64,000 bases of DNA from a phage. Under the pieces are notes generated by a model. That model was not told the origin of the DNA, made no database searches, and saw only the letters and a program-made list of their open reading frames with translations. The DNA lies in assembly GCA_036253495.1 (NCBI GenBank), contig GCA_036253495.1_4125.1. The stretch is one strand, 5' to 3'. This document shows, in pieces, positions 2,855 through 62,946 of this stretch; position 1 is the stretch's first letter; the number at the start of each line of letters is the position of its first letter. A program made the translations under genes and the position numbers.

Positions 2855-3082
2855 ATGATTAATATCTTAGAACGCATCAAAGAAACTACTACGCTGGTGG
2901 ATCTACTCAATGTACTGACTTTTAAAGTAACTCGGTTTAGTACTCCTGAATTTATCAACCTCATTGATAGTAAAGGTGAATACCGCATCACTATTGAAAA
3001 TGGTCGTGCTAATGTATTCAGTACTAAATCAGGTAAAACCGCAATTCATTCTGTAATTGCAAATAAAACTGTTGCAATCTAA
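2855..3082 (+). CDS. hypothetical protein (75 aa)
   Basis: SD GGAGAAA + ATG 2855; track start 2819 lies in promoter. Confidence 0.65.
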   Translation: MINILERIKETTTLVDLLNVLTFKVTRFSTPEFINLIDSKGEYRITIENGRANVFSTKSGKTAIHSVIANKTVAI

Positions 3083-3131
3083 TTAGTACTAACATATAAT
3101 AGTCACATCAAGGCAGGGAATACCTCCCTGC
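3072..3131 (+). promoter_or_regulatory. sigma70-like promoter + 5' stem-loop
   Basis: TTGCAA 3072-3077, TATAAT 3095-3100, hairpin GCAGGGA..TCCCTGC 3113-3131. Confidence 0.6.
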
Positions 3132-3151
3132 TATCTTAAAGAGTAAATGCA

Positions 3152-3736
3152 ATGCGTAATTATACTAAATTCATCCGGGCACTGGCAGAAATGGAAACTA
3201 ACAAAGAGATCCTTACAGCTTGTCGGTTGGCTGGTCTGGAGATCATCGGGGCCGGATCATCCCGTATCGTATTCGCTTTAAATGATCGGTTAGTGATTAA
3301 GGTCGCTAATTGTGACGCTGGCGTAGAACAAAATGAAACAGAATGTAAGGTATGGAATTTTTTAGATTATGACCGCCCTCACCTTAAACAGTACTTTGCT
3401 AAGGTGCATATGCATTTAAGCGATCCTGATAATATGTTTATTGTTATGGATCGTTTGAGTACTGCAAGCAAAGGCAGTGTAAAGCACGTTAACGCTTGCA
3501 ATGAATTAAAGTACAATGTCAAACGTAACACTATTGAACGCCAACACCATTTCGCTGATGCACTACAACACGTTGATGATACCTTATCAACACTAACGAT
3601 AAGAGATATCAGAAAGCAGAACATAGGCCAAGATCGCAATGGCCTGATTAAAGTACTTGATTACGGTTTAACCCGCAATATCTGGAATCAGTACTATAAA
3701 CAACGCGACGTAAAAGCCGTAACTATAACACGATAA
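3152..3736 (+). CDS. putative protein-kinase-like protein (atypical small Ser/Thr kinase fold)
   Basis: IIGAGSSRIVF (Gly-loop), VIKV (Lys), IRDIRKQN (catalytic loop), VLDYG (DFG-like) in kinase order. Confidence 0.45.
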   Translation: MRNYTKFIRALAEMETNKEILTACRLAGLEIIGAGSSRIVFALNDRLVIKVANCDAGVEQNETECKVWNFLDYDRPHLKQYFAKVHMHLSDPDNMFIVMDRLSTASKGSVKHVNACNELKYNVKRNTIERQHHFADALQHVDDTLSTLTIRDIRKQNIGQDRNGLIKVLDYGLTRNIWNQYYKQRDVKAVTITR

Positions 3737-3744
3737 AAAAGATT

Positions 3745-3870
3745 AAAAAAGGGATTGACTCCAGTCAGTCCCTTTGCTATTATATAGTCATTGAGAGATA
3801 ACTCACTGACCCATAGGGTGCATAAGTGTATCTATAATATAAGTATTGTCAGTACTGAAAACTATTTTAA
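3745..3870. repeat. conserved intergenic element, copy 2 of 3
   Basis: same hairpin/promoter-like module and GGGTGCATAAGTGTATCTA box as 441-560; no GCTGGTGG in this copy. Confidence 0.75.
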
Positions 3871-3878
3871 AAAAGTAC

Positions 3879-3940
3879 TTGCATTGTACTTAGAATCAAG
3901 TATAATGTTTTATATCGAGAGGGGGAAACGGTTCTCCCTG
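3879..3940 (+). promoter_or_regulatory. sigma70-like early promoter + 5' stem-loop
   Basis: TTGCAT 3879-3884, TATAAT 3901-3906, hairpin ~3919-3938; identical to 579-606. Confidence 0.7.
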
Positions 3941-5226: not shown

Positions 5227-5288
5227 TTGCATTGTAGTTAGATTAAAGTATAATGTTTTATATCGAGAGGGGGAAATGGTTTCCCCTC
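5227..5288 (+). promoter_or_regulatory. sigma70-like early promoter + 5' stem-loop
   Basis: TTGCAT 5227-5232, TATAAT 5249-5254, hairpin GAGGGGGAAATGGTTTCCCCTC. Confidence 0.7.
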
Positions 5289-5306
5289 AAGTCCAGGAGA
5301 TACACC

Positions 5307-6822: not shown

Positions 6823-6960
6823 AAAAAAGGGATTGACTCCGGTCAGTCCCTTTGCTATTATATACGCATAGACAAAAACTAGCCCACAGGGTGCATAGGT
6901 GTATCTAAAATATATAGTTAATAACGGTGAGTAACTATCTGCTGGTGGAGTGAAAACTAT
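6823..6960. repeat. conserved intergenic element, copy 3 of 3
   Basis: same module as 441-560; GGGTGCATAGGTGTATCTA; GCTGGTGG at 6941-6948. Confidence 0.75.
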
Positions 6961-16670: not shown

Positions 16671-17019
16671 TACATTTGATATCAATAAGTTAACAGAATG
16701 GTTTTATAATATTGAAATTGAAGCTATTCCGTATCATAAGTACGAACAAAGTGATTTGCGTAGTATAGATATTCGTGAGTTGTATGCATATTATCAGAGT
16801 GCATTAGAGATGCATAAGATATTTTTGAGTACAGAATACATGACACGTTGTAAGGATGCGTTTGATGAATTCAAGAAGAATGATAATTTAGTACAGAAAT
16901 ATGTAATAGCAAAGTACATGTACCTTCAGGGAATTACAAGTACAGTGGAATTCAATACAGTTCTTGCTTTAGTTGAGATTATTTTATTATGCAAAAATGT
17001 AAAGTGGAATTTAGTTTAG
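16651..17019 (+). CDS. hypothetical protein
   Basis: SD GGAAAGGAAA + ATG 16651 (track 16618). Confidence 0.55.
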   Translation: MTSKYNNTFDINKLTEWFYNIEIEAIPYHKYEQSDLRSIDIRELYAYYQSALEMHKIFLSTEYMTRCKDAFDEFKKNDNLVQKYVIAKYMYLQGITSTVEFNTVLALVEIILLCKNVKWNLV

Positions 17020-17486
17020 AGAGTGCTGTACAGTACGTTAAGTACATTGAAGGTGTATACAATATAATGAAAGCATATGAAGGAAAAGGATATGCTTCAA
17101 TAAATCACAAATATGATTATATTAACAATCAGTTAGAAGAATCAAATTCAGGTAAAGTGCTTTTTAGTTTTTTATATTTTGCTCCTGACAATGTATATCC
17201 TGATGAAAATGATCTTCGTCTGGAAAGAGATGACCTTTGGTATATGTATCCAGGACGTGATAAGCCAATGGATGATGCTTTGTTGGAAATCAAATACAGT
17301 ACAGAACCTTTGACACCGGAGTTGTGGTTCCAGTACAGTACAATACATGAAGAAATTGATATCTTTTTCTACGCAATATATAAGATGCTTTATGAGAATG
17401 GTGTGCTTAAGAATCATGTATATTTTTATTTCCAGCAAATGAAAAATGTATATGAGTCCTTTTACCCAACCGAGCCTGTATCGTAA
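16989..17486 (+). CDS. FQxS-family protein
   Basis: track ORF; motif PELWFQYSTIHE. Confidence 0.7.
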   Translation: MQKCKVEFSLESAVQYVKYIEGVYNIMKAYEGKGYASINHKYDYINNQLEESNSGKVLFSFLYFAPDNVYPDENDLRLERDDLWYMYPGRDKPMDDALLEIKYSTEPLTPELWFQYSTIHEEIDIFFYAIYKMLYENGVLKNHVYFYFQQMKNVYESFYPTEPVS

Positions 17487-52877: not shown

Positions 52878-53177
52878 ATGGACAAAATACAATTAGTTAG
52901 TAGTACTATAACAATGCTTGCTGATGTTGCCAGATGGAGCAGTGGTGGTTCCGTTAGTACTATGCTCGGTATACTCACGCAATACACCTATACATGCAAT
53001 GGAATGTTATATGGTAAGGAGGTTGAAATTGATGATCCCTATGGAATTCCCATATCATATGACCGAGGTGTAATAAAAAGGGTTACTCTGAGACTAACAT
53101 ATCATCCATATTTTGTAGTAGAACTTCCAGATGGAAAATTAAGAGAATATGTTGCTAAAAGGTTAAAACTAAAATGA
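52878..53177 (+). CDS. hypothetical protein
   Basis: track ORF 99 aa. Confidence 0.6.
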   Translation: MDKIQLVSSTITMLADVARWSSGGSVSTMLGILTQYTYTCNGMLYGKEVEIDDPYGIPISYDRGVIKRVTLRLTYHPYFVVELPDGKLREYVAKRLKLK

Positions 53178-53752
53178 ATATTGTAGAATTAAGTACTAAG
53201 CTGATTACTATGCGTAACGAGTGGTACAATTGGTATTATAACGGTACTGACATGGATTTTTCAAAATATCCATTTATGGAATCAGGATGTGATTCAAGAT
53301 ACCGCTGGTTGAGTAAAGATGATTCTGGTTTACATATTCGAGTTGATGATAGTGGTCAGGGAATTATAAAAGATTTACTTCAAGTTGAAGAACTCGTCCA
53401 TGATGAGTGGTGTGATAATGATCCATACCTAGGAAATATAATTTATGTAACTGAAGATGATTGTATATTCGTCATTCAGCGTCATGGTGATTCTATGTTT
53501 TATATAGCAGACAGCAGTACACCTGAAGGTGCAGCATCAGATGGTCTTATTCCTAAGATTAATATATTAGATTTTGGCTTACCTGAGCACTTCCAGATGA
53601 GTACTCTATTCGATATTCCACCGTTTGAGTTCTTTGACGAATTTAAATTGTACTACAGTGATCTTCAGAAATTGAGTACAGAGAGTCGTATTGAAATAAC
53701 TGTCAGGTACATGGACGGGGCAAAATTAACCGACACGGGGATAGAATTTTGA
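53174..53752 (+). CDS. FQxS-family protein (outlier copy)
   Basis: track ORF; motif PEHFQMSTLFD. Confidence 0.65.
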   Translation: MNIVELSTKLITMRNEWYNWYYNGTDMDFSKYPFMESGCDSRYRWLSKDDSGLHIRVDDSGQGIIKDLLQVEELVHDEWCDNDPYLGNIIYVTEDDCIFVIQRHGDSMFYIADSSTPEGAASDGLIPKINILDFGLPEHFQMSTLFDIPPFEFFDEFKLYYSDLQKLSTESRIEITVRYMDGAKLTDTGIEF

Positions 53753-61971: not shown

Positions 61972-62206
61972 ACAGTTAAAGATGTTACAATCGTTATCTG
62001 ATGATTTTGTCCAACGTGCTAAGCACAAATATATTGGTCAAGAAATTCTTCTTAAACACTCCAGAGGTTGGCAAAAAATATGCATAAGAGATATGGGAAC
62101 ATATTATGGTGATGTGCGATATTACGTAGATTGCTATGTTAATGACCAAATTGCCAATACTCAAGTTGTCACCTATGATAAAATTATATGGATTAAAGAA
62201 CAATGA
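61952..62206 (+). CDS. KYIGK-family small protein
   Basis: track ORF; HKYIGQEI. Confidence 0.65.
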   Translation: MTKTEIEQLKMLQSLSDDFVQRAKHKYIGQEILLKHSRGWQKICIRDMGTYYGDVRYYVDCYVNDQIANTQVVTYDKIIWIKEQ

Positions 62207-62946
62207 AACATTTCTTAGAAGTAACAGTTCCTGATGAAAAAGATTTGTATATAGTAGGAGACATTCACGGTAATGCAAAACTATGGGAACATACCAAGAA
62301 AGAATTTGGTATTACTCCTGAAGATTATGTATTCAGTTTAGGCGATTTAATTGACAGAGGTGAGCAAAGTGCTCACCTTTTGTTTGAGTTTTTATTCGCT
62401 GAGAATCGATATATGATCATGGGCAATCATGAATCGATGTGTATTGATTCTGCAACTCATCGTGACTGGTATCATTGCTGGACACAGAATGGGGGCGATA
62501 AGTTCCTGGAAGAAGTTGGTGTATCAGGAGTGGAATTCTTCCGTCAGTACTTGAACCAGCTACCTATGATTATCCAAATCAATCACAGAGGACTCAAGAT
62601 TGGCCTCGTACATGCAAGTGTAGACCTTAAGCACACTGACTGGAATAAGTTCATTACTGGGACAAAATCAATGTCCAGTGATACAATTGAGTCATGCCTA
62701 TGGGACAGAAAGACATTTGATTTCTGTAAAGCTAACAACGTCTTTAATGCACCACGTATTGCTAACGTCGATTACGTTCTTAGTGGTCATACCGCTGTGT
62801 TTGATCCCCTAATTTATGGAAACCGTATCTGGATTGACAGTCAGTTCCTTACTGGTGATTTGACTATTGCTACCCCACAAGGTGGTAAGATGCGTTATTT
62901 GCGTAAAGAAAAAGACGAATATTCATTCAGTCGATTCAAAAGGTAA
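62203..62946 (+). CDS. PPP-family Ser/Thr protein phosphatase (lambda-phosphatase-like metallophosphoesterase)
   Basis: GDIHGN, GDLIDRG, GNHE motifs in canonical order; ATGA coupling. Confidence 0.85.
   Translation: MKHFLEVTVPDEKDLYIVGDIHGNAKLWEHTKKEFGITPEDYVFSLGDLIDRGEQSAHLLFEFLFAENRYMIMGNHESMCIDSATHRDWYHCWTQNGGDKFLEEVGVSGVEFFRQYLNQLPMIIQINHRGLKIGLVHASVDLKHTDWNKFITGTKSMSSDTIESCLWDRKTFDFCKANNVFNAPRIANVDYVLSGHTAVFDPLIYGNRIWIDSQFLTGDLTIATPQGGKMRYLRKEKDEYSFSRFKR

Follow-up and report, generated by a model that had tools for sequence, protein, structure and literature searches.

The question raised by this locus is whether a phage protein of only 194 amino acids (aa) can be a protein kinase and, if so, on what it acts. 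A first-pass annotation of the window, by which we mean the whole 64,000-nucleotide stretch of phage DNA that was analysed, had described the open reading frame (ORF) as a minimal protein-kinase-like early gene with four kinase motifs in the correct order. It further proposed a circuit with a Ser/Thr phosphatase at the other end of the window. Here, the gene, its family, its predicted fold, and its relationship to known kinase-fold enzymes are described, and the possible functions of the protein are weighed.

The kinase gene and its genomic setting

The ORF lies on the + strand, begins with an ATG at 3152, has a stop codon ending at 3736, and encodes 194 aa. Its coordinates and the four motifs quoted in the first-pass annotation were confirmed exactly. 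Specifically, IIGAGSSRIVF (residues 31–41), VIKV (48–51), IRDIRKQN (150–157), and VLDYG (168–172) follow each other in kinase order, an arrangement that exceeds chance. The elements in and around the gene are as follows.

3072..3100, + strand: putative sigma-70-like promoter upstream of the kinase gene, TTGCAA-17 nt-TATAAT, 10/12 matches (recognized by its consensus match)
3113..3131, + strand: 7-bp leader hairpin, GCAGGGA / TCCCTGC (read directly from the sequence)
3138..3143, + strand: ribosome-binding site AAAGAG, 8 nt before the kinase ATG (read directly from the sequence)
3152..3736, + strand: coding sequence of the minimal protein-kinase-like domain, PHROG 4301 (ORF call, predicted model, dN/dS)
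3748..3775, + strand: 12-bp hairpin just 3' of the kinase stop codon (candidate terminator and promoter element)

The hairpin behind the stop codon encloses a TTGACT -35 element, is followed downstream by a TATTAT -10 element, and is one of three copies of this arrangement in the window. The neighbours of the kinase gene are small ORFs of no assigned function, and no biosynthetic or modification genes are evident alongside it. The kinase domain was also searched for elsewhere in the window, and no further copy was found. The window has a G+C content of 34%, and nearly all of its sizeable ORFs are on the + strand.

The DNA around the ORF is 88–95% identical to that of Escherichia jumbo phages of the genus Asteriusvirus, with matches to A4, PBECO4, 121Q, G17, phAPEC6, and Sharanji (genomes of 348–386 kb). 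The orthologue in vB_Ec-M-J, at 16,690–17,274, is located within an annotated direct terminal repeat of 21,525 bp, and the orthologues in the RaK2-like phages Muenster and fENko-Kae01 are likewise annotated in the terminal repeat. The first 7 kb of the window contain eight sigma-70 promoters with a perfect 12/12 consensus, all on the + strand. Given the position in the terminal repeat and the density of sigma-70 promoters, it is therefore reasonable to expect that the kinase gene is expressed early and by the host RNA polymerase, and this timing is considered plausible on the basis of these sequence features.

The identification as a kinase is already known from public annotations and one paper, a point missing from the first-pass annotation. 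In GenBank, the gene is labelled “protein kinase domain-containing protein” in ph0011, “serine/threonine-protein kinase PknA” in Turkey3, “serine/threonine-protein kinase” in Turkey5, and “serine/threonine-protein kinase PRP4” in fEgEco12, while the labels in Munch, SE_PL, Muenster, and K64-1 are “putative protein kinase” or “protein kinase”. The PBECO4 entry in UniProt (L7TKF0) is named “Protein kinase domain-containing protein”. The 585-nt Sharanji orthologue (WNN14351.1) was mentioned in the genome paper of that phage as “another protein kinase... which function is unknown” (PMC11895373). A literature search found no experimental work on any member of the family and, within the literature on minimal or atypical bacteriophage kinases, no description of a PHROG 4301-type family. 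The paper on the phAPEC6 virion proteome does not mention the family either.

Catalytic positions and predicted fold

As a single sequence, the protein matches the Pfam models Pkinase and PK_Tyr_Ser-Thr with E=0.001 each, both under the gathering thresholds (for PF00069 Pkinase, 18.9 bits against a cut-off of 31.7 bits). The match to PHROG 4301 is strong (E=2e-41), with the label “unknown function”, and an NCBIfam scan of the ORF gave nothing informative. The best 60 sequence matches in the PDB are protein kinases in all but one case. When aligned with PKC-theta, D152, N157, and D170 fall on the catalytic loop and the DFG motif, and K50 is matched to the IK of the stretch IKALKKD, whose IK lysine we take to be the ATP-binding lysine of PKC-theta. 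The single-sequence signal for a kinase is weak but specific.

The family is much larger than a word-indexed search suggests, which yielded only 13 clusters down to 40% identity. An exhaustive profile search recovered 2,067 representatives at E<=1e-3, of which 242 reached E<=1e-10. Most representatives are single-domain proteins of 180–260 aa. Among phages, 58 records in all carry the kinase. The Asteriusvirus orthologues share 92–96% aa identity. Those of RaK2, K64-1, Munch, SE_PL, Muenster, two Erwinia phages, and Xanthomonas phage XbC2 are 36–40% identical, and that of Yersinia phage fHe-Yen9-04 is 27% identical. A distant member is encoded within the replication module (RNR, DnaB, RecA, PolA) of a 117-kb phage-like contig. 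Family profiles run against the PDB matched almost only protein kinases (MKK4, MKK7, BTK, PAK) with E-values of approximately 1e-4, from the Gly loop through the DFG. A scan of 51 members found no curated Pfam family that covers them, and the weak matches were to Pkinase (9/51, best E 5.7e-6) and ABC1 (5/51, best E 6e-4).

Conservation was assessed by column statistics in a family alignment of 120 sequences. The following elements of the catalytic machinery were assigned.

3248..3265, + strand: Gly-rich loop G33-A-G35-S-S-R38, between beta1 and beta2 (120-sequence column statistics; strands 30–34 and 38–42 in the model)
3299..3301, + strand: K50, the beta3 (VAIK-type) lysine, 120/120 (column statistics)
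3329..3343, + strand: Q60-N61-x-x-E64 on helix C (column statistics; helix 55–74 in the model)
3605..3622, + strand: catalytic loop D152-I-R-K-Q-N157 (column statistics; aligned to the RD...N loop of PKC-theta, MKK4, and MKK7)
3659..3667, + strand: D170-Y-G172, the DFG equivalent (aligned to the DFG of PKC-theta, MKK4, MKK7, and BTK)

R38, K50, G57, Q60, and E64 are conserved in 120/120 sequences, D170, G172, and G159 in 119/120, D152 and N61 in 116/120, G35 and S36 in 113/120, and G33 in 107/120. Position 157, which is Asn in the 194-aa protein, is N, H, S, or Q in 117/120, and the middle residue of D-Y-G is Y in 95/120 and F in 17/120. On this alignment, all canonical catalytic positions of kinases appear among the best-conserved columns of the family. 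The Arg that precedes the catalytic Asp (R151) is not conserved, with Gly in its place in 60/120 members, and there is no Lys at the D+2 position. Other invariants are specific to the family: R38 occupies the third Gly position of GxGxxG, and G57-x-x-Q60-N61 lies where helix C begins. The resulting family signature is G-x-G-S-S-R ... K-x-A-x-N-x-x-G-x-x-Q-N-x-x-E ... D ... D-Y-G.

A model built from an alignment of 14 sequences was unusable (pLDDT 52) and was replaced by one based on the 120-sequence alignment, which reached a pLDDT of 95.3 and a pTM of 0.91, with no segment below 70. Two N-terminal helices (4–12 and 17–26) precede an N-lobe made of beta1 (30–34), the Gly loop, beta2 (38–42), beta3 with K50 (47–52), and helix C with E64 (55–74). 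Beta5 (96–100) leads through a hinge to helix D (108–120) and helix E (130–145). They are followed by the catalytic loop with D152 and N157, two short strands (158–160 and 166–168), D170-Y-G, a short helix (175–182), and the C-terminus. The model thus has the features of a bilobal protein-kinase-like (PKL) fold: an N-lobe sheet with helix C, a hinge, helices D and E, a catalytic loop, and the DFG strand pair. At the level of secondary-structure placement, the catalytic residues are where a kinase would have them: K50 on beta3, E64 on helix C, D152 and N157 in the catalytic loop, and D170 at the DFG position. E64 is presumed to be the salt-bridge partner of K50. A non-kinase fold would have spoken against the reading of a minimal protein-kinase-like gene; the confident kinase-like model obtained instead, together with Lys, Glu, Asp, Asn, and Asp as the most conserved columns, bears that reading out.

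Structural comparison with solved proteins, in which just 100–137 residues were aligned in each case, gave scores of 9.6 for SAICAR synthetase, 9.1 for APH(2'')-Id, 8.7 for STK17A, 8.4 for FAK, and 8.3 for PknB; Rio2 (7.3), ArkI (6.9), Bud32 (6.8), and Rio1 (6.6) scored lower. Foldseek searches of the PDB returned Lpg2603, MEK1, APH(2''), p38, PknB, IRAK4, and PRPK with TMq values of 0.33–0.48. In BFVD, the closest named neighbours are T7K-type kinases of the phages Pantoea SK1, Yersinia fPS-53, and Ralstonia RSB1 (TMq 0.54–0.56, E 3e-6 to 5e-5), which match better than any solved kinase.

After G172, only 22 residues remain to the C-terminus (24 after D170), and the activation segment, the P+1/APE element, and helices F–I (subdomains VIII–XI) are absent. 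A truncated or fragmentary gene was considered and is ruled out by two observations. First, in some metagenomic relatives, a single ORF strings together two to four full copies of the approximately 200-aa unit in tandem, and a four-copy example on a JGI contig is an uninterrupted ORF. Second, dN/dS among four Asteriusvirus orthologues is 0.03–0.09, indicating purifying selection. Because the relatives also have the same length, the 194-aa protein is a native and complete minimal domain of the kinase fold. It belongs to a large, uncurated family of phage proteins.

Comparison with T7K and other kinase-fold enzymes

The closest known system is the T7 kinase (T7K; gp0.7, PF27024) with its relatives, among them JSS1_004 and T7K homologues of jumbo phages. 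T7K has been described as a dual-specificity protein kinase that is hyper-promiscuous, recognizes no motif, and disarms defence systems (Nature 2026, PMC13645617). It was shown experimentally to be constitutively active without a recognition motif and to disarm the defences of the host (PMC13645617; PMC12345140), and it has a D-P-V motif in place of DFG (PMC13645617). The 194-aa protein resembles T7K in several respects. Both are products of phage genes that are early or, for the 194-aa protein, probably early, and both have a compact kinase-like domain with an N-terminal helical extension and a Gly-rich loop. The beta3 Lys of each sits within V-I-K-V, and the catalytic loop follows the pattern D-x4-N. 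The kinase domain of each ends approximately 10–25 residues past the DFG equivalent and lacks an activation segment and helices F–I.

There are also clear differences. The 194-aa protein has D-Y-G rather than D-P-V, has its own invariants (R38, G57, Q60, and N61), and lacks the C-terminal shutoff/DNA-binding domain; in T7K, DPV (213–215) is followed by a linker and a basic shutoff region. Unlike T7K, it obtains a Pfam Pkinase match, at the E-value of 0.001 given above. Profile similarity is not significant against T7K alone (hhalign probability 2%). Against a seven-sequence T7K-family alignment, hhalign gave a probability of 16% and E 0.0016, confined to the N-lobe. That T7K profile is shallow because every homologue among the 120 matches listed was a close relative (at least 69% identity).

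Divergent homologues of T7K have been reported in jumbo phages, including Munch and G17 (PMC13645617). We considered whether the 194-aa gene is that homologue and rejected this assignment, as the T7K homologue of Asteriusvirus is a separate gene, represented by Sharanji gp144 (WNN14432.1, 224 aa). This protein contains “ITDPLS”, matches T7K with a BLASTP E-value of 4e-8, and ends 18 residues after DPL; for gp144 and the kinase domain of T7K alike, the distance from the DFG-like motif to the end is approximately 10–20 residues. A T7K-like gene was looked for in the window and is absent from it. T7K is nevertheless the best functional analogue, on account of the shared truncated architecture and its place among the closest named BFVD neighbours, but the 194-aa protein lies outside the T7K family.

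Other kinase-fold systems are more distant. Compared to Hanks-type Ser/Thr/Tyr kinases (PF00069, PF07714), the protein scores under the gathering thresholds and lacks subdomains VIII–XI; in its family, an invariant Arg replaces the third Gly of GxGxxG, conservation of the HRD Arg is lost, and the D+2 Lys is missing. Neither the 194-aa protein nor the family members match Pfam RIO1 or Kdo/Bud32-type models, and the structural match to RIO and Bud32 proteins is not closer than to other kinases, so that both lines of evidence place it outside the RIO/Bud32 group. Bud32/PRPK, RIO1/RIO2, and ArkI retain more of the C-lobe and, rather than being early phage proteins, carry out housekeeping tasks in cells together with defined partners (KEOPS, pre-40S ribosomes, and tRNA). 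No sequence-profile similarity to the APH(2'') or SAICAR synthetase (PurC) families was found. Those enzymes have 237–300 aa, in contrast to 194 aa here, and carry substrate-binding domains that this protein lacks, whereas its K/E/D/N/D pattern aligns with the motifs of protein kinases. Membership of the SAICAR synthetase family was rejected, since the match is one of fold only, with no match to Pfam SAICAR_synt.

Probable function and the proposed phosphorylation circuit

The ORF, its fold, the conservation of its motifs, purifying selection, and its genomic position are established here, and on this basis the protein is very probably an active kinase-fold phosphotransferase. Going further, we infer catalysis, timing, substrates, and biological role, and favour, with some reservation, an early, constitutively active protein kinase that acts on host proteins.

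For this favoured protein kinase, the following mechanism can be proposed. The gene would be transcribed early from a host-RNA-polymerase promoter in the terminal-repeat region. In the N-lobe, beta1–3 would carry the G33-x-G35-S-S-R38 loop, K50 would be paired with E64 on helix C, and beta5 would lead to the hinge. The remnant of the C-lobe would contribute helices D and E, with D152 as the catalytic base and N157 and D170 as metal ligands. ATP would be held between the normal N-lobe and the C-lobe remnant, under the G-x-G-S-S-R loop, and anchored by the K50–E64 pair. The enzyme could not be switched by phosphorylation of an activation loop, and constitutive activity is expected because there is neither an activation segment nor a conserved RD arginine. 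Since a helix F–G platform is missing, there is no canonical peptide groove, which favours either the phosphorylation of proteins with low selectivity, as in T7K, or a non-protein acceptor bound at R38, Q60, and N61. R38, G57, Q60, and N61 may lie around the site of the gamma-phosphate and the substrate, where they would probably substitute for the missing elements. The most likely reaction would be Ser/Thr phosphorylation of host (perhaps also phage) proteins with low sequence selectivity. The outcome may be to help in taking over the host or to disarm its defences, as the similarly truncated T7 kinase does.

The strongest competing explanation, although a distinctly less likely one, is a phosphotransferase or ATP-dependent ligase of the kinase fold that acts on a non-protein substrate such as a small molecule, a nucleotide-derived immune signal, a lipid or sugar, or RNA. 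Models for such an enzyme are aminoglycoside/choline-type kinases, the archaeal tRNA kinase ArkI, and SAICAR-synthase-like enzymes, with R38, Q60, and N61 as the acceptor pocket. The loss of the peptide-binding lobe and the presence of SAICAR synthetase, APH(2''), and ArkI among the best structural matches are consistent with it. However, the differences in Z between the top structural matches are small, and the profiles match protein kinases, not APH, choline kinase, RIO, Kdo, or SAICAR_synt. T7K, which has the same truncation, shows that protein-kinase activity is possible in such a domain, and the lack of evident biosynthetic or modification genes beside the kinase gene also argues against a non-protein substrate. 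A more specific form, in which this family of approximately 200-aa phage proteins comprises early phosphotransferases that inactivate a non-protein host molecule (a nucleotide-based immune signal, tRNA, or an envelope precursor), is improbable. If true, it would represent a new class of phage counter-defence enzyme, in which the R38/Q60/N61 pocket replaces the peptide-binding lobe.

Less probable still is a pseudokinase, or a protein that binds or hydrolyses ATP without phosphotransfer to a substrate, as has been proposed for UbiB/ABC1-type proteins; it would act by binding and sequestering a host factor. The missing substrate-binding lobe and the weak ABC1 matches would fit such a protein, and G57-x-x-Q60-N61 loosely recalls the KxGQ element, which occludes the cleft of UbiB proteins. 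The ABC1 matches are, however, far below threshold. Moreover, pseudokinases usually lose at least one of the catalytic residues, whereas K50, E64, D152, N157, and D170 are all kept here and are among the most conserved columns.

The circuit proposed in the first-pass annotation involves a second enzyme, the gene of which is located at the other end of the window.

62203..62946, + strand: lambda-type (PPP, NinI-like) Ser/Thr phosphatase (GDIHGN, GDLIDRG, GNHE)

This assignment was upheld by the motifs, by Pfam Metallophos (3e-14, 54.2 bits against a cut-off of 21.5), by PHROG 246 (NinI-like, 1.5e-65), and by a full-length match (residues 4–228) to lambda phosphatase 1G5B with E=4.8e-16. NCBIfam models of the PrpA/PrpB type gave 5e-18 and 1e-15, below their equivalog cut-offs. 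The enzyme shares the metal-binding motifs GDxHG, GDxxDRG, and GNHE with lambda NinI (1G5B), but its ORF is approximately 25 residues longer than that of lambdoid NinI and only about 25% identical.

According to the proposal, the kinase would be acidophilic and phosphorylate the Ser of L-S-E-E-E in the FQxS proteins, and the phosphatase would reverse this modification, so that the paralogues would form a phage-controlled switch. The FQxS proteins are a strikingly expanded set of approximately 40 paralogues (PHROGs 13866, 9317, 22855, and 12674) with no Pfam match. In favour of a circuit, the genes for the two enzymes occur together in this genome and also in RaK2-like phages, and half of the paralogues have S or T right before the conserved E-E. 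However, the phosphatase family spans 1,317 phage records (T5-like, lambdoid, Vibrio, and others), compared to 58 for the kinase, and most of the 1,317 lack the kinase; because of this disparity, its presence requires no kinase partner and appears to be independent of the kinase. The two genes lie approximately 59 kb apart. The second, T7K-like kinase of the phage could equally be the counterpart of the phosphatase.

The substrate side of the proposal is no firmer. The statement that many FQxS proteins carry L-S-E-E-E was too strong, as exact LSEEE is present in 3 ORFs and SEEE in 6 of the approximately 40 paralogues. An alignment of 40 paralogues revealed E-E-x-x-F-Q-x-S-[L/T] as the conserved element. 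The residue in front of E-E is S/T in 20/40 and otherwise N, D, I, L, V, or G, and a row count found [S/T]-[E/D]-[E/D] in 16/40. In this alignment, the variability of the S/T column, next to a conserved E-E-x-x-F-Q-x-S, seems unlike that of a conserved phospho-acceptor. Furthermore, no feature of the kinase predicts acidophilic specificity, and the whole peptide-binding lobe is missing. The circuit is therefore very doubtful and must be regarded as unsupported speculation.

Finally, a chance resemblance of the motifs in an unrelated small phage protein, to which single-sequence E-values of just ~1e-3 to 1e-2, below the Pfam threshold, might have pointed, has a negligible probability and is effectively refuted by the confident kinase-like model and by the invariance of the catalytic positions in 120 diverse relatives.

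The favoured protein-kinase reading places the gene in a wider context. Recent work has established the phage kinases T7K and JSS1_004 as weapons with a broad action against defences. The 194-aa gene stands for a second lineage of kinases, just as stripped-down but distinct in sequence. This lineage is conserved across RaK2/121Q-type jumbo phages, has approximately 2,000 representative relatives in metagenomes, and has no Pfam family. If the protein is active, Asteriusviruses would use two distinct minimal kinases, and the family would show, by an example from nature, how small a part of the kinase fold suffices for catalysis.

Predicted promoters and repeated elements of the presumed early region

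The first 7 kb of the window holds what is, judged by consensus, a strikingly dense array of predicted ideal host promoters. Eight perfect (12/12) sigma-70 matches, each composed of TTGACA, a 16-17 nt spacer, and TATAAT, all lie in intergenic positions. Two further kinds of element recur in this region.

695, 1034, 1302, 1732, 4184, 4678, 6188, 6527 (+): sigma-70 consensus promoters
444-471, 3748-3775, 6826-6853: three copies of a 28-nt hairpin, AAAGGGATTGACTCC(A/G)GTCAGTCCCTTT, then GCTATTATAT
approximately 3890-3930 and 5253-5290: recurring leader, translation MFYIERGK(R/W)F

Because a TTGACT -35 element lies within the stem of the hairpin and a TATTAT -10 element follows the stem, the repeat looks like a combined terminator/promoter unit between presumed early genes. 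The leader precedes at least two small genes, and a similar sequence, MYYIERR..., begins the called N-terminal extension of the relative P0011. Rather than coding sequence, the recurring stretch is probably a conserved promoter region or untranslated leader.

Expansion of the FQxS paralogues

The FQxS paralogues, which the first-pass annotation raised speculatively as possible kinase substrates, represent a very large lineage-specific gene expansion that takes up approximately 28 kb.

12958-40796 and 53174-53752: approximately 40 FQxS ORFs in tandem, 108-216 aa

The motif E-E-x-x-F-Q-x-S-[L/T] is common to these approximately 40 proteins. A Pfam search of the paralogues returned no match, and the several PHROGs that cover them are all labelled 'unknown function'.

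Conservation of the kinase and the phosphatase

The two genes at the ends of the window differ in their conservation.

3152-3736 (+): minimal protein-kinase-like ORF, 194 aa
62203-62946 (+): lambda-type phosphatase ORF

Kinase identity is 92-96% across the genus Asteriusvirus, whereas the phosphatase is 97.6% identical only to that of phage A4; a further 48 records fall in a 60-80% identity band, among them another Asteriusvirus, JP4 (75.7%), and RaK2 (64%). The phosphatase end of the window therefore appears to be mosaic or fast-evolving.

One kinase orthologue (P0004, 90% identical) carries the database name 'hypothetical protein QPL51_04540 [Escherichia coli]'; the contig that encodes it, 347,166 bp long, is evidently a whole jumbo-phage genome deposited inside a bacterial assembly.

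Tandem kinase-like domains and a second kinase

In some metagenomic proteins, such as P0023 and also P0021, P0027, P0030, and P0032, a single ORF contains the complete kinase-like domain (approximately 200 aa) 2-4 times in tandem; these may be either fused arrays of genes or genuine multi-kinase proteins. Asteriusviruses also have another minimal kinase gene, outside the window, whose 224-aa product is a homologue of the T7 protein kinase gp0.7.

L005 204-2975: tandem-domain ORF P0023
L004 28183-28857: gp144 of the Asteriusvirus Sharanji (WNN14432.1)

Sharanji gp144 matches T7 gp0.7 by BLASTP (E=4e-8) and has the DPL motif; these phages therefore carry two unrelated truncated kinases.
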